A stretch of DNA of 64,000 nt from an uncultured Chloroflexia bacterium (lineage in GTDB: Bacteria > Chloroflexota > Anaerolineae > Anaerolineales > UBA4823): positions 10,833 to 74,832 of the forward strand of contig CAVOSB010000026.1 in NCBI GenBank assembly GCA_963698765.1, written 5' to 3'. The notes below the pieces were generated by a model. That model was not told the DNA's origin, did no database searches, and saw nothing but the letters and a program-made list of their open reading frames with translations. A program made the translations under genes and the position numbers. Positions within the stretch are counted from its first letter, which is position 1. Each line of letters starts with the position of its first letter. Below, piece by piece: positions 535 through 12,739 of this stretch.

Positions 535-3499
535 ATGAACCTTGTTAGATCCCATCTAGCCCGACCTGGCACCAGGACAGCAGGCTTCGTTGTATTTTTT
601 GTGTTCTGCGTGTGTGCATTCTTCATGCTCGTTGAGACCGATGATGCAGCAGCTTTTCCGGACAGCAGTCCCCCACTGGAACAGCCCAGTTTGACCCAGC
701 AGCTGGACACACCCAGCGGAACCGAGCCGCTGGACGTGCCCAGCGTATATCCGCCTCCGGAAATCAGCATCTCGGATATCACCGTCAGCGAAGGGGACAG
801 CGGCATCATCCAGGCTATCTTCTCGATCCTGCGCTCCGGGTACCTGGGCAGCATCTCGGCTATCGGTTTTACAACTGCAGACGGCAGCGCAGTCCAACCC
901 AGCGACTACGCCAGCCAGTCGGGTACGCTGGTCTTCGAGCCGAATGTGGCCAGCCTGACCGTGACCGTGGATGTAAACGGTGATACCCTGTCGGAAGCGG
1001 ATGAAAACTTCTTCCTGGACCTGGGCGATCCGCTGTTTGCCGAGATCATCGACGCCCAGGCGCAGTGCACGATCACCAATGACGACCCGCAGCCTGGGAT
1101 AACCATCGACGATGCGACACTCTCGGAAGGCGACAGCGGGACTGCAGCACTCTCATTTACGGTCCACCTGGATGCCGCAAGCGGGCAGACGGTCAGCGTT
1201 GACTTTTCTACTGCAAACGGCACGGCTGTCCAACCCGGCGATTACCTGTCCGCTTCCGGAACCGTCACTTTTATCCCTGGAGAGACTGCGGAGACCATCC
1301 AGGTCAACATCGTTGGAGATATTCTGGACGAAGCTGACGAGACTTTCCTGGTGGACCTGGCGAACCCGCTTAACGCCACGCTCACAGACAACCAGGCGCT
1401 CGGCACAATCAACGACGACGACCTACCAGCGGAGATCACGATCGCAGACACAACCGTCACGGAAGGCGACAGCGGGACGGTGAGCGCTTCCTTCACGGTG
1501 GCTCTCAACACCCCCAGCGGGAAAACCGTCAGTGTGGAGTATTCCACTGCCGACGACACAGCCACACAGCCCGACGACTACCAACCCGCCTCCGGGACGC
1601 TCACCTTCATCCCGGGTGATGTTTCTGAGAGCATTACAATCGATGTAGCCGGTGATACTCTCACCGAAGGCGATGAGGTATTCCCGGTTAACCTGACCAA
1701 CCCGACGAACGGCACAATCGCAGACAACCAGGCTGTCGGCACGATCAGCGATGACGACCAGCTGCCAGAAATGACGATCAGCGATGCCACAGCCACCGAA
1801 GGGGACAGCGGTACGACCAGTGTTTCCTTCCTGGTGACTCTGAGCGCCTCCAGCAGCAAGACAGTCAGCGTCACCTATGCCACCGGCGACAACACGGCCA
1901 GCCAACCGGCCGACTACCAGCTAACAACCGGCACGCTTACTTTTGTACCGGGCGACATGGCAGAGCAAGTGCGGGTCAATATCGTTGGCGATACGATGGA
2001 CGAGGACGATGAGACCTTCCTGGTCGACCTGTCAGGTCCGGTGAACGCCACCCTGGCGGACGACCAGGCATTGGGGACGATCACGGATGACGACCCGCCG
2101 CCGGAGATCACGATCAGCGATACCACCGCCACCGAAGGTGACAGCGGTACGACCAGTGTTTCCTTCCTGGTGACTCTGAGCGCTTCCAGCAGCAAGACAG
2201 TCAGCGTAACCTATGCCACCGGCTACAACACGGCCAGCCAACCGGCCGACTATCAACAAACAACCGGCACGCTTACTTTTGTCCCGGGCGACAGAGCAGA
2301 GCAAGTGCGGGTCAATATCGCCGGCGATACGATAGATGAGGACGATGAGACCTTCCTGGTGGACCTGGCAGATCCGGTGAACGCCACCCTTGCGGACGAC
2401 CAGGCATTGGGGACGATCATAGATGACGACCCACCGCCTGGAATCCGGATCGCAGACCTGACGGTTGCAGAGGGCAGCAGCGGAACGACAACCGCATCTT
2501 TCACAGTCACCCTCAACTCCGCCAGCGGTAAAACCGTAACTGTCGATTATGCAGCCGCCGACGACACCGCCACCCAGCCCGCCGACTACCTTTCTGCCTC
2601 GGGAACCCTCACTTTTCTGCCAGGAGATGTCTCAGAGAATATCAACGTTGACATCGTCGGGGATATTATTGACGAAAACGATGAGACCTTCGTGGTGAAC
2701 CTGTCGAATCCCGAGCAACGGCCGGATTGCAGACAACCAGGCGCTCGCGACGATCAGCGACGACGACCTGCCGCCAGGCATATCGATCGCAGACACAGCG
2801 ATCACCGAAGGGAACAGCGGGACGACTGCTGCGACGTTCATCGTTTCACTGAGCACAGCGAGCAGCAAGACGGTCAGGGTGAATTACGCCAGCGCCAACG
2901 GCTCAGCCATCCAACCCGCCGATTACCAGCCTGGGTCGGCCCTGGTCACATTCAACCCCGGAGAGGTATCGAAGAATATTCAAATTAAACGTCGTGGGGG
3001 ACACCCTGGATGAAATCGACGAGACCTTCCTGGTCAACCTTAGCAACCCGCTGAACGGCAGCCTGCAGGACAGCCAGGGAACCGGAACGATCACGGATGA
3101 AGACCTGCCTCCCAATATGTCGATTGAAGACGTGACTGTCACTGACGGCGTGACTTCGAACGTGCTGGCGACATTTGTGATCCGGTTAGATGCCCCCAGC
3201 GGGAAGCAGATCACGGTGAACTTCGCCACCCAGGACGACAGCGCGATTGCACCGCAGGACTACCTGGCTGCCACGGGCCAGGCGACGATCAACCCCGGAC
3301 AGACACAGTTTTCGATTACGGTGACTGTCATCGGTACGTTAGGCAACGAGCCAGCTGAAAGTTTCTTTGTGAATTTGAGCGGGGCTGTGAATGCCAACCT
3401 GGTCGATAACCAGGCAATTGGAACTACCTGTAGAATTACCTGGTCTTTCTTCCAATTGTGCTCAATTCCAATAGCGGACACTGGTATCATCCACCGTAA
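535..3499 (+). CDS. Secreted/surface Calx-beta repeat protein (8 domains; frameshifted near 2716, 2985 and 3430)
   Basis: N-terminal hydrophobic segment; eight ~112-aa repeats of type ISD.TV.EGDSG...DY....GTLTF.PG...I.GD..DE.DETF.V.L..P.NA.L.D.QA.GTI.DDD; an alternative frame ends NYLVFLPIVLN...HPP*. Confidence 0.85.
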
Positions 3500-3575
3500 A
3501 CCGGACATGATACCGGTGTGGATCGATCCACAATCGCTGCACCGGTGGGTGTTAAAAAGGGCGACCTGAAAGGAC

Positions 3576-3611
3576 TAGAAGCTAAACTTCTTCTTAGAAG
3601 TTTAGCTTCTA
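3576..3611. repeat. REP-like hairpin family A (TAGAAGCTAAACTTCT-N4-AGAAGTTTAGCTTCTA)
   Basis: Perfect 16-bp inverted repeat between convergent genes; five copies in the window. Confidence 0.9.
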
Positions 3612-4022
3612 TATTCGCTTGTATCCAGCAACAGGCGCCGGTCGGGGGTCAATTCCACCTTGAGCTCGCGAATCGGCTGGTCGGCGGGGCCGTTGAGCAG
3701 GCTGCCGTCCTGGGTGAAGCGCGAGCCGTGACAGGGGCAGGCATAGCCATCGTTCTCTGATGCCAGGATGCAGCCCAGGTGCGGGCAAACCAGGCTCAAC
3801 GCCCGGTAACCGCTCCCTGTCGACAGGAGCACGGCCTGGGCTTCCTCAACCAGCGTGCTGGAGCCGGGTGGGTACTGGCTGGCAGGACCCAGGTCGAAGC
3901 GCGTCTGGGCAGGTGGGTCGGCTGGTAGCTCAAGAAGCGCCCCAGGCCGAGGAAATTCCGAGCAGCCCGCTCGCACCCAGCAGGCCTTTTCCGAGCCAGC
4001 TTAGAAAATCACGCCGGTTCAT
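3602..4022 (-). CDS. Rieske 2Fe-2S protein with TAT signal (Rieske/cytochrome b complex subunit)
   Basis: CPHLGC and CPCHGS motifs; MNRRDFL twin-arginine start at 4022 in a shifted frame. Confidence 0.9.
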
Positions 4023-4049
4023 CTTGGAGCTTTGCTTCATTGCATCGCC

Positions 4050-5290
4050 TCAGCGCTCGACAGCATGGCATTCATGGCAGTACCTGGATTCTGCTGATCG
4101 ACCTGCTGCTGGCAGTCGCTGCCCATCACCGGTTTGAATGAGAAGCGCTCGCCAGTCGCTTTGCCGAACAGCTCGTAGCTGCCGTCATCCAGCAGGCGAG
4201 TGTTCCACAACGGCTCGCCCTGGCTGGGTGACCAGGATGCTATCCCCGACCTGCAGATCGATGACCGGGTTGAGGAAAGCCAGGCGCATCGCCAGCTCGT
4301 CCTGGCGTTGGATGCTGGCGGTGAGTGGGAGCTCATCCAGCGTGCCGTGGCAGGTAAGGCACTGGACGTATTGGATCTCCTTCTTGTGGCTGTATAGGTT
4401 CCCGTCACCCATGGCTTCCTGGCGCGTGTGGCAGTCGATGCAGTCCAGGGTCCATTCGCAGCGTGTGAACTGGGCTATGGGCTGGTAATAATCGTGCATG
4501 CGGTCGGCCGGGTCGTCGCTGCGATGGACGAATTCCATGCTCCGCAGGTCGTAGTTGCCGCGGTTATGGCAGGTGTTGCACTGCGTATAAGGCATCGCAA
4601 GGGTCAGGTCGTGAACCTGCTGCTCCGCATCCAGACCGGCTGTCCTGGTATGGCAGGCAGAGCAGCCGGTGAAGCGGTAGGAATCCGGGCCGTCCAGTGG
4701 TTCAGACCACAGGTGGCAGTTCAGGCAGTTCTCGGCAAAACTGCAGCACAGCAGGCGAGCTTTCCTGGCCTGGATCGAAGCTTTTAACTCCGGCAGCGCC
4801 AGCTCGTTGATCCATGCGGTAAGCTTTCACCGCCTGGACGCCGTAACGGGCTTTCAGATCGGGCTGGGCACCAAAGGTGAAGCGCATCTGGGCGATGGCG
4901 CCGGCGTAGGTGGCCTGGATGCCGGTTAGCACGCGCTGGATATGATCACGATCCAATTCGGTGGTTCCGCTGTGACAGTCACTCCCACCACATGATGCTT
5001 CAACCACCGACAGGTCGGAAGGGTTCGCTCCGCCGCGGATGCTGCTGTGAGCCAGGTCAGCGTCGAGAGCCAGCCGCTCTCCGCCGTGACAGCGCACGCA
5101 GCCGAAGGTCTGTACCGGCGTGGGCCGGGCTGATCTCCGGCAGGTCGCCGTGGCAGGTCAGGCAGTATTCGATCTCACCGGTCAGGGTCGGAGTCAGCGG
5201 GACGGGCGCCGGTGAACGGCTCTCGACGAACCAGGCCAGGAGCAGGGCAGCCAGCAGCAAAGCTGATGCCAGGACGGCGAGCGCTCTCAT
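4050..5290 (-). CDS. Membrane-anchored multiheme cytochrome c (~9 hemes; frameshifted)
   Basis: Across frames: CLTCH, CVRCH, CGGSDCH (atypical), CLNCH, CSACH, CNTCH, CIDCH, CLTCH, CHECH; N-terminal TM helix. Confidence 0.85.
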
Positions 5291-6313
5291 CGCAGCGCCA
5301 TCAGGGTCAAAATTAGGATCGCGGATCCGAGCAGGGCCACCGAGATGCTAGCCAGCCGGTTACCGGTTGGGAACCAGCGACCCAGCTCGCGCTGGCTGGG
5401 CGACCGGAAGCGCGTACGGCAGGAGGGCCAGCCACAGCAGGACGAACACGGGCAGGGCGACTCCCCAGATGAACGGATTTTTGAAACGCAAGAGCTGCTG
5501 CACCCACAGGAAGAACCAGGGCGCCCGTCCTTCTGCGGCAGACATACCATCCGGGCTGATAGGCTGGTCTATGGGTGCCGGGAAGAGGGCGGAAACGATC
5601 ACCAGCAGGGCAGCGCACAGGAACGAGGCCAGGATTTCCCGCCGCACCAGCTCATTGCGGCTGATGCGCGTGTGGTCCTGGCGGTGTTCAGGCGGCGGCA
5701 GGGCGATGCCGCCGTCGCGGCGGACGCGGAAGATGTGCCAGATACCGATCAACACCAACGGGAGAATCAATCCAAAGATGTGCCAGGCATAGAAGCGCAC
5801 CAGGGTAGCCGGGCCGGGCTGGCTGCCCCCCACCAGCATCCCGTAGAGCACATTTCCCAGCAGCGGGATGGAGCGCAGCAGGTTGGTGCCTGCCACCAGC
5901 GCCCAGCGAATGCCTTCGTCCCAGCGCAGGACGTAGCCGGTGAAATCGAGAAACAGGCACAGCACCAGCAATCCCAGTCCGAGCAGGTAATTGAAGCTGC
6001 GCGGCCGGGCGTAAGCCCCGGTGAAGACTACACGCAATAAATGCAGGATGGTGACGACAACCAGGGCCTGCGCAGCCCAATAATGCATGTTGCGAATAAA
6101 ACCGCCAAACGGGACCAGGTAGGTGATGGTTTGAACCGAAAGGGCGGCTTTGGAGGGCTCGGGGACGTAGTAAAAGAGCTCAACGGCGCCGGTCAGGATC
6201 AGCACCAGGCACAGGAACACTGCCACTCCACCGGCTCCCAGCGTGTAGCGCCAGCGTGCCTGGGCGGCAGGGATGGTGGGAGGGTGTAGGTGGTGAAAGA
6301 AAGACGGGCGCAC
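5287..6313 (-). CDS. Cytochrome b (b6-like N-terminal domain fused to a subunit IV-like C-terminal part)
   Basis: RNMHYWAAQ...LHLLRV and FYAWH...WHIFRV heme b ligand pairs, TGYVLRWD, APWFFLW at the Qo-motif position. Confidence 0.9.
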
Positions 6314-6406: not shown

Positions 6407-7207
6407 TTAATCTCCAGTCGGCTGGCTGGCGGGGACAGCGGAGGCCTCCGCCACCTGCGCTTCGACTTCGTCTTCCCAGTGCGCTTCTTCTTTCAGCTTC
6501 TCGTTGTACCACTTTTCGTGGTGGGCGCGGGCATACCAGGCGGAGACCTTACCGGAGAACATGGAGAAGAAGGCTTCCTTTTCTTCGGGGAAAACTGCTC
6601 CCATGTAGACATGGATCATCAATCCGGCCACGATGGCGAATACGGACATCCAATGGATGGGTTGGGCAATCTGTTTCAGAATGGGCGGAAAGACCGTTCT
6701 GAAGGTCATAACGATCCCACTTAGCATGATCCCAATGGTTGCGAGTATGACCACGTACATGTAGGCTTTCTGCCCGGCATTGTATGCGTCCTGGGGCGGA
6801 AGCTCCTTGTCTTTCATGAAACCCAGCATCTGCAGCGGCTTGATCTTGAGCCATTCGATGTCGTCCTTATCCAGCAGCATGCGGTGCGAGGCGAAAGGCA
6901 CGAAGTAGCGGCGGAAACCGATCAGGATGTTGAAGGTCAAAACGAAAATCCAGATCAACCCCACGGTGTAGTGAAAGCGGATCAGGTTAGCAGAACCGCC
7001 GAAGATATTGCGAAAAAGCTCCTGCAGCCAGAGCGGGCTGAGACCCAAGGCGGGAGATGAAAGGATGGCAATGCCGGTTGGAAAAAGCATCAGCCAGCAG
7101 GCCACGTTGAACCAGTGGGTGAGGATATTGGCCAGGTTGTGCTTCTTGTACTTCTTCTCGCGCAGCCGCCGGCGTTCTTCCAGAGGTATACTCTTATATC
7201 GGCTCAT
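6407..7207 (-). CDS. FdnI/PhsC-type di-heme cytochrome b membrane anchor
   Basis: Four TM helices with THW, RFHY, PIHW and IHVYM histidines; YNAGQK motif; C-terminal WYARAHH.KWY. Confidence 0.85.
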   Translation of the reverse strand: MSRYKSIPLEERRRLREKKYKKHNLANILTHWFNVACWLMLFPTGIAILSSPALGLSPLWLQELFRNIFGGSANLIRFHYTVGLIWIFVLTFNILIGFRRYFVPFASHRMLLDKDDIEWLKIKPLQMLGFMKDKELPPQDAYNAGQKAYMYVVILATIGIMLSGIVMTFRTVFPPILKQIAQPIHWMSVFAIVAGLMIHVYMGAVFPEEKEAFFSMFSGKVSAWYARAHHEKWYNEKLKEEAHWEDEVEAQVAEASAVPASQPTGD

Positions 7208-7211
7208 CGCA

Positions 7212-7970
7212 TCACTCCTCAAATTCCGATTCACCCTGAACCAACTGCTTGGTGAAATAGACTGCCTGCACCAGGAAGGCCCCACCTACTGCAGCGGCCA
7301 TGAGCGGTACAGCCACTTTTTTCCAGCCAGCCTGGGACAGCGTGTATTCGGGCGGCCGGGGCAGGGTCTTGTCCGGCAGTACCAGCGGATCGGTAGCACC
7401 GGCGTAGTTGATGTAGTAAATATTCGGATCGGTGTCCACATTTCCGTCTTCAAAATCCAGGCGCAGCACGGTGGAGGCGGTTTTCAATGCTTGCGAGACC
7501 TCGGAATCCGGGTCATTCAAGTCTCCGAACAGGCGTGAACCGCCCAGGCAGGTGGCGACGCAGGCCGGCTGCAGGCCGACCTCCACGCGCTGGATGCAGC
7601 CGTTGCATTTATCAACCACACCGCGCTCTTTATCCAGGTAGCGCGCGTCGTAGGGGCAGGCCTCCACGCAGTAGCCGCAGCCGATGCAGGCTTCCTGGTC
7701 TACCAGCACCAAGCCATTCTCCTGGTCCTTGAAGGTCGCACGGCTGACGCAGACATCCACGCAGGGTGGGTTCTCGCAATGCATGCAGTTATAAGGGATG
7801 AAGGTGCGGGTCAAATTCGGAAACTCACCCTGGATTTCAGGCGTGTAGACCCAGATGCGCGAATCCGTCATTGGGACAGAGTTTTCAACGCTGCAGGCCA
7901 CCAGGCAAGCCCGGCAGTCGATGCAGCGCGCAATGTCAATCACAAAACCGTATTTCTTCTTAGTTGCCAT
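7212..7970 (-). CDS. 4x[4Fe-4S] electron-transfer subunit (PsrB/PhsB/DmsB family) with C-terminal TM helix
   Basis: CIDCRACLVAC, CMHCENPPCVDVC, CIGCGYCVEACP, KCNGC...PACVATC. Confidence 0.92.
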   Translation of the reverse strand: MATKKKYGFVIDIARCIDCRACLVACSVENSVPMTDSRIWVYTPEIQGEFPNLTRTFIPYNCMHCENPPCVDVCVSRATFKDQENGLVLVDQEACIGCGYCVEACPYDARYLDKERGVVDKCNGCIQRVEVGLQPACVATCLGGSRLFGDLNDPDSEVSQALKTASTVLRLDFEDGNVDTDPNIYYINYAGATDPLVLPDKTLPRPPEYTLSQAGWKKVAVPLMAAAVGGAFLVQAVYFTKQLVQGESEFEE

Positions 7971-7980
7971 AGTCAACCCT

Positions 7981-10164
7981 TCAAGCCTTCTTGACCGTCA
8001 CAAAGGTCTGGCTGAGCGCCTGCCCGCCGCTGATCGGGTCGGTATAGGTCACATGCAGGACCGAGTTGCTGACACCGTTCGCAAAGGCAGTGGTCAATCC
8101 CTTGGAGAGATGGCCGTAACCCGGGGTCAGGTAAACGCAATCGTCGCGGATAGCCTTGGTGACCAGTACCTGGACCTGCACCTTGCCGATCTCACTGGCG
8201 GCTTCCACCCAATCGCCGTCCACCAGGCCGCGGGCAGCGGCTGCTGCCGGGCTCATCCATAGTCTCGGTTGATCCTCATATTTATGCAGCAGCTGGTTGT
8301 TCTGCGTGCCCATCTGGGTGTGCTGCCCGACTTTACCGGTGAGCAGGTAAAAGGTATCGGGCTTGGGCAGAGGAGGCTCTTCCCAGTGCGGCCAGGGTGA
8401 GAAACCTGCTTTTTCGAGCGTTGCGCTGAAGATCTCGATCTTACCGGTGGGAGTGTTGAACAGGATTTCTTCGCTCTCCGGTTTTACGACAGCCGGTACC
8501 AGGTAGCCCTTATAGCGCAGGGCTTCGAAATCCAGCCCTAAAGGCTCCAGCTGCTGTTCGATGTAATCGACTTCGTCCTCATATTGGAAGTAATCACCCA
8601 ATCCGAGGCGCTCGCCGAGCTGCTTGTAAATCCACAACGCAGAACGCGACTCCCCCAGCGGCTCGATCACCGGCTGACGCAAGAAAATCTTGCCTTCAAC
8701 CACAGATAACGGGTCAAAGCGCTCCAGGTAGGTGGATTCCGGCAGGATCACATCGGAGAACCAGGCAGTATCATTGATGATGGCGTCCACCGTGACAATG
8801 AAATCCATCTTGCCAAAGGCTTCTAATGTACGCTGGCGGTCGGGCAGTGAGAGCACGGGGTTCTGGCGGGAGATGAACCAGCCGTGCGCCTGGTAGGGCT
8901 CACCGGTCAGGATGGCGTCGCGCATTTCCTGGAACACGCCCAGCTTGAGCGGCACCAGCGGGTATTTCCAGGGCACGCCGTCCAGCCGCATGGCAGAGAT
9001 GCGCGGGTAAGGGGGCTGAGGAGGCTTGCCCAGCGTGATCCCGCTGGCTTCGGGGCTCTCGGCAGCCAGGCAGCCGCCCTGTCTCACCACCGCACCGGTT
9101 ATCGCATCCAGGGTGGCGATGGCGCGTTCGGTCTGGAAAGAATTAATAAAGTTCGATGTACGCCAACCCGGGTGCGCCAGGGCGTGTTTTCCGGCCGCAG
9201 CAAATTCGCGGGCGATGCGCTCGATCGTGGCGGCAGGCACCCCGGTAATCCCCTCCGCCCACTGCGGCGTGTACTCTTTCATGGCATCCGGAAGGTCCAG
9301 GCAGCCGACCACGTACTTCTGGACAAAATCGCAGTCGCCGATCTGGTTGGTGACGATCACATTGATCATCGCCAGCAGGAAAGCAGCGTCGGTGCCCGGG
9401 CGGATTGGTATCCACTCTGTAGATTTGGCAGCCGTCTTGGTGAAGCGCGGGTCGAGTGAGACCAGCTTGGCGCCCCGGGAGATGGCTTCCACCAATTGAG
9501 AGGTCTCGGAGGTGGAGATGGCTTCCATCATGTTGCGCCCGGTCAACAAGACGTACTGGACGTCATCATAATTCCTGGACGGCTCTTCAACACCGTATGT
9601 CAGCAGGAAGGCGGTCACCATGGCGTTGAAGCACAGGCTGCGCTGGGTGCCGTAGTTGGGAGAGCCGAAGCCGTTCAGCAGGTTCTCAAATTGCACCTGG
9701 GAAAGGCTGTGGGTGGAAGAGAAGACCATCGCTTCCGGGCCGTACCTGGACTTGATATCCAGCATCTTCTCTGCCGTGAAATCCAGGGCTTCTTCCCAAC
9801 CGACCTGGCGGAACAGCCCTTCGCCACGCTTGCCTACCCGGATCATGGGCGAAAGCACGCGGTCGGGATCGTAGGCGTGCATCAACCCCGACTGGCCGCG
9901 TGCGCATAGTTTCCCGCGAGTGCGGGTGATCGGGATTGCCGTCCAGCTTCACCACGCGGTCGTCGACAACTTTAGCCCGCACTCCGCAGCGCCACACGCA
10001 CATCTCGCAAAGGGTGTGAATGTAGCCGTCATCGGTGAGCGGGACCTTGCCGCCGTAAGCAGCCCTGGCCAGGCGCGGAGGAACACGCGGCTGGCAGCCG
10101 CAGCTCCCACTCCCAGGCCGCCGAGCCTGATGAAATCGTGTCTAGATATCACGTTTTGTTTCAT
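7981..10164 (-). CDS. Molybdopterin oxidoreductase catalytic subunit, polysulfide/thiosulfate reductase (PsrA/PhsA) family; frameshifted at the N-terminus
   Basis: TAT-like leader, CEMCVWRCG...KLCARG 4Fe-4S motif, GSPNYGTQRSLC with the putative Cys Mo ligand, PIRPGTD, SDVILPESTYLER. Confidence 0.85.
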
Positions 10165-10173
10165 TTTTTTAAC

Positions 10174-10731
10174 TTATTCACTCGTTTTATTCTTGCGCTG
10201 CAAGCCTGCCCGATCGATCAGGTAGAACAACAGCAATGACATCGAAGCAAAAAGCAGCACAGCCAGGAATGGGCTCAGGTTCCAAAGGTCGGGGATGACC
10301 ACATTGCCCACTTTTTCCAGGCGTTCGATGGGAGGGAATATTTGCTGGTAAGTCAATCCGAACAGGGCTGCACCAACCAGGAAACCCAGGAAACCAGGGA
10401 TCACGTAATCGAGCTTGCCTTCGCCGCCACCGGCGGCGCAGGTGCCCGGTCAGAGACCGACGAGGGCCATGCCCACACCGAAAATCAAGCCTCCTAACAG
10501 GTTGCCCACCACGTAAGTGGCAGGGACATTGGGGAATGTGATCAGTCCCAGCCCACGCAGCGTGTACAGGCCCGCCATGGAGACCACCAGGGCGGTCATA
10601 ATGAATTTAAGGACGGCCATATCGGTGAAGCGGAACACGTTCACGATCTTGCTATAGCGCGTCAGGCCGGCCTTGTTGAGGGAAAACCCAAAAAAGACGC
10701 CCAGGATCAGTGCGAGGATATAGTTCGTCAT
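10174..10731 (-). CDS. YeeE/YedE sulfur-compound transporter, second half; predicted selenoprotein (in-frame TGA at 10450-10452)
   Basis: The ORF ending GMALVGL* continues in the same frame as PGTCAAGGGEGKLDYVIPGFLG; the TGA occupies the Cys of the family GxCPGT motif. Confidence 0.8.
10422..10438 (-). promoter_or_regulatory. Putative bacterial SECIS element
   Basis: CGCCGCC-GGU-GGCGGCG 7-bp stem starting 11 nt after the UGA, with GU in the apical loop. Confidence 0.65.
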
Positions 10732-10733
10732 GG

Positions 10734-11270
10734 TTAATATCTCCTGCGGTAGACGAGGATCGTAGTGAGAATGCCGGACATGAACATGCCGGCCATGAAC
10801 AGGAAGGCTGCCGGCGCCAGCAGCATGCCGCCGGAGATAACCAGCCCACTGGTGCACCCGCCGGCGATGCCAGCCCCGTACTCCAGGATGATGGAACCCA
10901 GGAAGACCAGCAGCCAGCGCTTCCACAGCTGCGCCCCGAAGATCGTTTTCCACTGGGCGTCGTCGGTGTTCCAGCGCAGCTTCCAGGTGCGGCTGGAGAG
11001 CGCCCCCAGCCCACCGCCCAGGATGATCCCCACGAGCAGGACCACGCCCCAGGTGATGCCAGCCGGCATGATGAAGTTAAAATACATCACGTTGAAGACC
11101 TGCGGTGCCAGAGCTTTACCGATCAGGCCTGCCAGGTTTTCAAAGGCGCCCGAGGCGCCCAGCAAGCTGTCGCTCAGCCAGACAGCCAGCACCCCAACGA
11201 TGCCCAGCAGGGTGCCGGCGATATAAGGCGACCATAACTCTTTCCGAACTCCCTGAACAAGATTACTCAT
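10734..11270 (-). CDS. YeeE/YedE sulfur-compound transporter, first half
   Basis: WSPYIAG, LGASG and GAGIAGGCTSG motifs. Confidence 0.88.
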   Translation of the reverse strand: MSNLVQGVRKELWSPYIAGTLLGIVGVLAVWLSDSLLGASGAFENLAGLIGKALAPQVFNVMYFNFIMPAGITWGVVLLVGIILGGGLGALSSRTWKLRWNTDDAQWKTIFGAQLWKRWLLVFLGSIILEYGAGIAGGCTSGLVISGGMLLAPAAFLFMAGMFMSGILTTILVYRRRY

Positions 11271-11347: not shown

Positions 11348-12291
11348 TTAATCTCCAGACATCGCCAGCAGCAGCTCGCGTGTCGAACGGTCCAGGTTGC
11401 GCACGCGTGTGACCAGCTCGGGATCCAGCCGCGACAGGCTGTGGAACAGCTCCGAGGCGGCATCAGGATTTTCGAGCAAGCGCTGAAGGGCGTGCAAGCC
11501 CTTTGGATTCAAGCGGGCGATTTGAGGCAGCAAGGCCGCCACTTCCGCCGGCACACCTTCGATCGCCGGCAGCTCTTCTACCGTCAGTGCAGGGGTCTCG
11601 GCTTTCTTGCGGAAGATGGGCAGATCCCCGCGCTTGCGTTCGTTATAAACTGCGAAAGCACCACCGCCCAGGACAAGTGCAACGATCAACGTGGCGGCGA
11701 TCACATTGCCAACATTGACCGAGCGCACACCGGTGACCATTTCATCATAGCGCTGCTGGTAGTCGACCACGTCATCTCCTCCGGTCACCAGGGAAGTCGA
11801 GCCTTCCATGGGCGCGGTATCCTGGACTGCAGTTTCCTGGTCTGCGCTCTGAGGGTGGATTTACCTGTTTCGCCGGGGTCTGACCCGGCGGGCTGTTCAG
11901 GTGCGCCCCCCTCGCCGACGGTGATACCGAGCGTTGTGGCATACACCTGCGCCAGCTCACCCATGTCTTCCGGGTGGCAGGTCTGGCAGGCAGCCTGTAT
12001 ATCGGAGAGCGGGGGGACCATACCGGAATGGGCAGCGGCTTCATCCATGCTCTGGCTGTTCCCGGCGTGGCAGATATAACAGAAATCACCGAAAGCATGC
12101 GATTTATGCCAGCCTGTGCCGTCGGCGTTCACCGGATCTTTACCCTGTATTTCGTGGCAGTTTTTACATGATGAGGCCTGCGACCCGCACTGCGCCTGCG
12201 CGCTGGCGCCGGGATAGAGCAGGACTGCTGCCGACAACAGCAGGGCGCCGGTACAGACTAAGAGAAAAATCTGATTTTTTGAAAAGGCCAT
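11348..12291 (-). CDS. Triheme cytochrome c with signal peptide, C-terminal TM anchor and cytoplasmic tail (frameshifted near 11800)
   Basis: CKNCH, CYICH, CQTCH; TM segment VIAATLIVALVLGGGAFAVY. Confidence 0.8.
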
Positions 12292-12370
12292 CGATACCCT
12301 CCCGGATTGTGGGTTGTGCTGGAAAGCCTGCTTCTGCCGCTGTTTCCAGCCTCCTAGAAGCATTAAAACC

Positions 12371-12739
12371 TTATGTATTATCCGAAGTGATCCCCACCAG
12401 CTCTGATTCCATCAGCCCGGCACGATAGGCGATCCGGCTGCGGAGTACTTCCATCAGCAAGTCAAGTGCCTCGATCAAACGCCGGTCTGTCAGGCTGTAT
12501 TCCACGCTGGGTCCCTGGCGAACAGTGCTGACCAGGCCGCTTTCACGCAGTATTTTCAGGTGCCGAGAGGTGGTGGGCTGGCTTAATCCCAATTCAGCAG
12601 CCAGGTCTTTAACGCACTGCGACCTGGCTGAAAGGGCGTAGAGCAGCATGATGCGGTTGGCATCCGCCAGTGCTGAGCACATGTTGGCGTGCAGCTGGAT
12701 CACTTCCTCATGCAGGTTCGGATTATTCATCATCACCAT
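12371..12739 (-). CDS. ArsR/SmtB family transcriptional regulator
   Basis: ALADANRIMLL...LGLSQPTTSRHLKILRESGLV...G..VEYSL. Confidence 0.92.
   Translation of the reverse strand: MVMMNNPNLHEEVIQLHANMCSALADANRIMLLYALSARSQCVKDLAAELGLSQPTTSRHLKILRESGLVSTVRQGPSVEYSLTDRRLIEALDLLMEVLRSRIAYRAGLMESELVGITSDNT

Follow-up and report, generated by a model that had tools for sequence, protein, structure and literature searches.

A predicted selenocysteine in the PmpB-like subunit of a two-gene YeeE/YedE transporter encoded beside a PsrA/PhsA-like molybdoenzyme

Does an in-frame TGA end a transporter gene of an uncultured Chloroflexia bacterium of the Anaerolineales, or is it read as selenocysteine (Sec, U), and what would a protein carrying Sec at that point do beside a molybdoenzyme? 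The question is raised by a minus-strand gene of the YeeE/YedE family in the window, i.e. the whole 64,000-nt stretch of DNA analyzed here (Table 1). Read from 10731 down to 10174 with TGA taken as U, the gene yields 185 aa and contains a single in-frame TGA, codon 94 (10452-10450), in the context GMALVGL-U-PGTCAAG; translation table 11 splits it into ORFs at 10450..10953 and 10174..10404. An initial annotation had described two same-frame halves parted by one TGA, and a hairpin 11 nt past it. Both descriptions are borne out, the hairpin reading CGCCGCC-GGT-GGCGGCG, with the addition that the gene lies on the minus strand, which had been left unstated.

Table 1. Features of the locus in window coordinates. 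StYeeE, YeeE of S. thermophila; counts out of 80 refer to the best 80 of 206 related loci.
Feature	Coordinates	Strand	Remarks
bc-type module: cytochrome b, small ORF, multihaem cytochrome, Rieske protein	3602..6313	-	
Cytochrome b561-type membrane subunit	6407..7285	-	in 17/80 loci
PsrB/TtrB-like 4Fe-4S subunit	7212..7976	-	
PsrA/PhsA-like molybdopterin subunit	7981..10164	-	two assembly indels near 9914, 10081; start 9 nt after stop of Sec gene
PmpB-like (N-half) subunit of split YeeE/YedE transporter, 185 aa, predicted Sec94	10174..10731	-	PF04143 profile positions 8-161, E 4e-20; matches StYeeE 5-104
SECIS-like hairpin, 7-bp stem, GGU loop at +19..+21	10422..10438	-	begins 11 nt after TGA
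Cys98 codon (U-P-G-T-C)	10438..10440	-	
In-frame TGA, predicted Sec codon	10450..10452	-	StYeeE Cys91 by alignment
PmpA-like (C-half) partner, 178 aa, GGCTSG	10734..11270	-	PF04143 170-308; Cys139 = StYeeE Cys293
CxxCH-bearing membrane protein, two ORFs	11348..12363	-	one 310-aa ORF in L068
ArsR/SmtB-family regulator, cluster head	12371..12739	-	NF033788 above cut-off; in 64/80 loci

The assembly does contain indel errors in the adjacent molybdoenzyme gene: two extra bases at 9914 are present in contigs from four runs of one comparison and one run of another, and a single run has an extra base at 10081. Both indels are assembly errors, since these independent short-read contigs restore the frame, and an intact 730-aa form of the psrA-like product is encoded in a relative (L068). 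At the TGA, a 644-nt contig from a separate study (run X5) shows 17 differences over 10286-10800, none of them at the codon, and this independent contig thus carries the identical TGA. The codon is likewise unchanged in contigs of runs X1 and X4, yet their support is weak because the codon lies just 26 nt from their ends. Sequencing error is rejected as the origin of the TGA.

Across relatives, the codon alternates between TGA and Cys, an alternation that the initial annotation had proposed to look for. Our main set comprises the best 80 of 206 related loci from species-representative genomes; the Sec column reads TGA in 48 of them, TGC in 29 and TGT in three, with no additional stop inside the matches, and the hairpin is tied to TGA. 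The 48 TGA loci show 71-82% identity and an intact downstream half. A second set of relatives, which overlaps the first, gave TGA in 16 and Cys in three of 19 close loci, and Cys in all ten distant paralogues (~400 aa). A YeeE-family paralogue of ~400-440 aa with the Cys motif GFCPGTS is common in related genomes (L034-L043); no match to it was found in the genome carrying the TGA gene. A pattern search of metagenomes, which required TGA and excluded Cys four codons later, returned 32 loci, of which 29 align to the query at 31-58% identity and three (L137, L139 and L151) were dropped for lack of any alignment; because the pattern demanded TGA, this set yields no Sec/Cys ratio. Eighteen of the 29 form one clade whose cluster members are named Desulfosporosinus, and one locus (L140) is doubtful as a Sec locus, as Cys is found in every one of its 120 nearest proteins. 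A tree built with the Sec column masked needs seven U/C changes, with gain and loss indistinguishable on this unrooted quick tree. Close orthologues were found in only three genomes, all of the same order, of a 250-genome sample of the phylum, one of them with a TGA, and none of 240 homologous proteins (the best 120 of 716 plus the best 120 of 6213) has a U at the Sec column. Cys98, four residues past U, is Cys in all of the 80 best loci, which are from Chloroflexota; the more distant TGA loci, whose search pattern excluded Cys there, lack it.

The hairpin has the features of a bacterial SECIS. Its loop starts at +19, inside the range of 16-37 nt after the UGA given for bacterial apical loops (PMC10778597). 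The predicted fold of bases +10..+33 has an energy of -14.1 kcal/mol; 2000 synonymous recodings average -6.1, and 1.3% of them reach a value as low. Only two of 1892 TGAs that close frames of at least 200 codons in the genome share the stem geometry and GG loop, one of them being the site at 10450. In the best 80 of 206 loci, all 48 TGA alleles rank in the top 10% for folding against their own synonymous nulls, as against four of the 32 Cys alleles, with mean folds of -12.3 (null -5.8) for the former and -6.4 (null -5.8) for the latter. The five outer stem pairs are intact in every one of these TGA alleles and vary solely by C/T and G-U, whereas the pair +15:+25 is present in just 11 of the 32 Cys alleles, where third positions drift freely; seven TGA alleles have a shifted hairpin register. 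Selection on the hairpin thus appears confined to TGA alleles. The 18 Desulfosporosinus-like loci, with eight distinct hairpin sequences, have all seven pairs in a different stem, and again a GGT loop at +19..+21. Two Cys alleles (L068 and L094) retain the hairpin sequence of neighboring TGA alleles, which suggests that they might be recent Sec-to-Cys changes. A scan of the window with Rfam returned one tRNA and nothing else.

The Sec machinery, the presence of which had likewise been put forward as a check, is encoded in the genome (3.85 Mb, 75% complete): selA is intact, a 97-nt tRNA-Sec has the anticodon TCA, and selB and selD are matched over their full length, each frameshifted as assembled. 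We read these two frameshifts as probable assembly errors because the psrA indels next to the TGA gene are contradicted by short-read contigs. Further in-frame TGAs are found in a formate-dehydrogenase-like gene (CARL*H; C4:48068, minus strand) and in selD (CAG*ASK; C34:25674, minus strand). The TGA of the former is followed, as at 10450, by an 11-nt spacer and a 7-bp stem with GG at +19, and the frameshift in the latter falls inside its hairpin. Among the genomes of the best 80 of 206 loci, leaving out two same-genome duplicates, a selA match is present in 46 of 47 TGA genomes (in one case just a fragment where the contig ends) as against 19 of 31 Cys genomes, a contrast that is inflated by kinship and incomplete genomes. 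The sole TGA genome without a selA match carries selB and a 72-bit tRNA-Sec, and a tRNA-Sec is also present in two of four tested Cys genomes lacking such a match.

Taken together, the alternation, the hairpin, the Sec machinery and the independent contig uphold the original proposal, and the TGA at 10450-10452 is very likely decoded as Sec, a prediction drawn from sequence comparison. The competing readings, a true stop (in a pseudogene, by an error of sequencing, or ending a functional product of 93 aa) or Trp under another code, are together extremely improbable. The former might draw on the indel errors of the assembly and on the 93-aa products listed in databases, and the latter on the W at the Sec column of six JGI proteins among 120 matches listed. 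Against a stop stand the TGA common to 48 of the best 80 of 206 loci, with its intact downstream half, and a hairpin selected in TGA alleles alone; on the shared TGA and the independent contig, a pseudogene or sequencing error is rejected. Against Trp, psrA and psrB end normally in TGA, and TGG is absent from the column throughout the best 80 of 206 loci; this reading is rejected too. Because of this absence of TGG, the W-bearing records (P0002, P0005, P0025, P0070, P0099 and P0110) probably represent read-through by a gene caller that treats TGA under another code. None of the three outcomes that the initial annotation had named as speaking against Sec, namely TGC or TGT in reads, missing Sec machinery, and homologs devoid of TGA or with an unconserved hairpin, came out that way.

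The protein had been taken for a single YeeE/YedE transporter; the family is right, but the gene encodes only the PmpB-like half, with the upstream gene supplying the other. The two halves match PF04143 at 72.9 and 49.6 bits (gathering score 27), and the partner's Cys139 is placed by a weak profile match (E 0.004). No significant match was obtained on comparing half with half by BLASTP, nor any relevant match on searching the partner against PDB with phmmer; an AlphaFold model of the PmpB-like half alone has a mean pLDDT of 52 and was set aside. The partner gene is present in all of the best 80 of 206 loci and invariably has Cys. An N-half gene next to a C-half gene, each with a single conserved pore Cys position, is the arrangement known from PmpA/PmpB, for which a heterodimer has been proposed (PMC11582611), and the two halves encoded here very probably form one as well. 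In StYeeE, Cys91 and Cys293 are both essential and are reported to lie ~7 A apart along the substrate path (PMC7449682).

The claimed link to the adjacent molybdoenzyme is backed by conserved gene order: arsR, the CxxCH protein, pmpA, pmpB, psrA, psrB and a membrane anchor, often followed by a bc-type module. Wherever the downstream sequence extends for 4 kb or more (69 of the best 80 of 206 loci), a psrA-like gene follows, with TGA and Cys alleles alike, and the Desulfosporosinus-like loci keep the order cytochrome-pmpA-pmpB-psrA-psrB. The best NCBIfam match of the psrA-like product is PhsA, at 506 bits; as this is below the cut-off of 694, its substrate is not fixed. Every psrA motif found has the Mo-ligand motif TQRSLCFN, with Cys as the ligand, and a twin-arginine signal is present in 75 of the 80 best relatives; where these have R-R, the molybdoenzyme of the window reads R-H (10138-10143), either a variant or an assembly error. 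The CxxCH protein has no Pfam match. Its gene immediately precedes the two transporter genes in 75 of the best 80 of 206 loci and is also kept in the Desulfosporosinus-like loci; its two-ORF state in the window is probably an assembly frameshift. The bc-type module (3602-6313) trails the molybdoenzyme genes as a private module in many relatives. Further along, a Calx-beta repeat protein is encoded by two consecutive ORFs on the plus strand (535-3569).

As to function, we lean towards a reading in which the Sec protein and the upstream product would form a YeeE/TsuA-like channel passing thiosulfate, polysulfide or sulfane sulfur for the PsrA/PhsA-like operon. SelB would bind the GG-loop hairpin, leading to Sec insertion, and the halves would together build an hourglass of the YeeE kind. 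A reduced sulfur species might move inward through it, handed over by the outer Cys139 to the central Sec94 and then released to the cytoplasm; Cys98 may stand in for the missing Cys22 on the cytoplasmic side. Sec would then stand in for Cys with greater reactivity, without marking a selenium substrate, and Cys alleles would do an equal job within the same operon. Certain observations go against the TsuA analogy: the position of StYeeE Cys22 is Thr in the PmpB-like half, a search of the 75%-complete genome gave no match to the TusA/YeeD family, and the psrA-like product stays below the PhsA cut-off. YeeD is reported as essential for YeeE-mediated uptake in E. coli (PMC11073785), and pmpAB of H. 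denitrificans as not thiosulfate-regulated (PMC11582611), which counts against the favored reading.

Two other roles bear on this choice. The Sec channel could be a SoxT1B-like sensing route, delivering sulfane sulfur in small quantities to the ArsR/SmtB repressor instead of feeding the enzyme. The frequent ArsR gene (64 of the best 80 of 206 loci) fits such a role, as does the service of SoxT proteins in both import and signaling (PMC11582611), and the widespread twin-arginine signal implies that the molybdoenzyme would act outside the cytoplasm, where an importer is unneeded. Yet the regulator does not reach the cut-offs for BigR and TsoR, and the Desulfosporosinus-like loci have no such ArsR match within a 4 kb flank; we regard sensing as unlikely. 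Still less probable is that the pair moves selenite, selenide or polyselenide, either as part of selenium homeostasis or to supply a selenium-oxyanion reductase, even though YedE-family genes are reported to co-occur with selenium metabolism (PMC9312934) and the downstream cytochrome b has a match, below cut-off, to ExtP from an operon for selenite/tellurite reduction. The selenium-associated YedE models TIGR04112 (27 of 200 bits) and NF033796 (36 of 350 bits) are likewise matched below cut-off, the sel genes lie on other contigs, and Cys alleles retain the same operon even in genomes without a selA match. In M. maripaludis, deletion of yedE is described as causing no clear selenium-uptake defect (PMC11097638), and a selenium importer requiring selenium for its own synthesis would presumably be self-limiting. 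Thus, among the thiosulfate, polysulfide and selenium species originally suggested as substrates, the sulfur species are favored and selenium is the least supported of the three.

With YeeE/TsuA of Spirochaeta thermophila and E. coli (PDB 6LEO, 8J4C) the proposed channel shares the equivalences U94 = C91 and partner C139 = C293; those are single chains of 330-350 aa with three Cys, whereas here there are two genes, with Thr for Cys22, no YeeD/TusA neighbor and a respiratory in place of an assimilatory setting. The TsuA/YeeE importer models NF041049 (27 of 645 bits) and NF052577 (39 of 400 bits) are matched far below cut-off. PmpA/PmpB of Serratia and Hyphomicrobium likewise consist of adjacent half-genes with one conserved Cys each, PmpB being described as the N-half with the C91 position (PMC11582611); the present halves differ in having ~180 aa instead of ~130, Sec for Cys and a PsrA/PhsA-like operon.

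The gene had been presented as a hidden selenoprotein, which stands only in part. A predicted 'YeeE/YedE' selenoprotein family is already catalogued, with the representative WP_012471001.1 (PMC13188914, PMC9312934) and the motif GUxSG (PMC13188914), and Peng et al. (2016) tabulate five organisms with it (PMC5029168); the Sec position described here is absent from the catalogue tables examined. The catalogued form likewise belongs to the same Pfam family, is split over two genes and has Sec for a conserved pore Cys. Its Sec, however, lies in the GUxSG of a PmpA-like half, whereas in the locus analyzed Sec lies in the GLUPG of the PmpB-like half and the partner has Cys. As the motif GUxSG alone is ambiguous, since StYeeE Cys91 also lies within GCASG, the assignment draws on the representative and two further examples among the deep-Sep data (PMC12013277), which are PmpA-like halves (WSPY...GUPSGHG) that by eye match the upstream partner. 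None of the 'UPG' matches in deep-Sep supplement files 1 and 3 (PMC12013277) is a YeeE protein, and the family is not named in the main text and supplements of the GOS paper (PMC2398784), in the main text of the Haft and Gwadz preprint, or in the main text and part of one supplement of BSepDB (PMC13326102), a database of 57,630 entries. A YeeE/YedE selenoprotein with GxUPG was not found described in the papers examined on this family, from which the full selenoprotein databases could differ. We therefore regard this as a new Sec position, the Cys91 equivalent of the PmpB-like half, within an already catalogued selenoprotein family; a 2026 review, where it treats such cases, counts a differing Sec position within one domain as a distinct subfamily (PMC13188914).

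By these comparisons, a predicted Sec-bearing pmpB is widespread in Anaerolineales-like genomes and Desulfosporosinus-like loci, and Sec in the PmpB half is commoner among the loci examined than the five organisms counted for the catalogued form in 2016. Named Desulfosporosinus species share the gene or operon. The mis-annotation that had been foreseen is evident in relatives: all seven stop-at-TGA products looked up stand in databases as 93-aa proteins (e.g. WP_345308173.1 in RefSeq), and D. metallidurans OLN32803.1 is a 93-aa member of one cluster. The reading as Sec corrects this widespread truncation in public annotation.

Three metagenome loci of 68-72% G+C (L134, L142 and L157, the first ending at a contig edge) have a TGA in both halves, in the motifs GG*TSG and GA*PGT, with a hairpin after each; those of L142 are at about 3377 and about 3800 on the minus strand. 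The L142 pair adjoins an AcrB-family pump gene, and beside it is a short gene that we take to resemble msrB. If these double-TGA loci are real, selenium would occupy both essential pore positions. Sec generally replaces redox-active or metal-binding Cys, and its repeated use in the YeeE pore therefore argues for pore chemistry. A rather doubtful extension is that split YeeE channels might be redox-active conduits and not passive pores, with either a Sec-to-Sec relay across the membrane that carries sulfane sulfur covalently or gating by a diselenide. A partial parallel to the double-TGA loci is offered by the ABC permease selenoprotein SaoP, of unrelated fold and family, for which a gating Sec is predicted and two Sec meet in the dimer (bioRxiv 10.1101/2022.07.06.499078). 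Were the conduit reading true, the UGA would make the channel selenium-dependent and, by coupling, perhaps also the molybdoenzyme encoded 9 nt downstream. The StYeeE structure paper proposes a three-thiol hydrogen-bond relay, with a plain channel presented there as not excluded (PMC7449682). The Sec-bearing pair bears on this very question of relay versus plain channel in YeeE, and the natural Sec, Cys and double-Sec versions make the chemistry of the pore testable.
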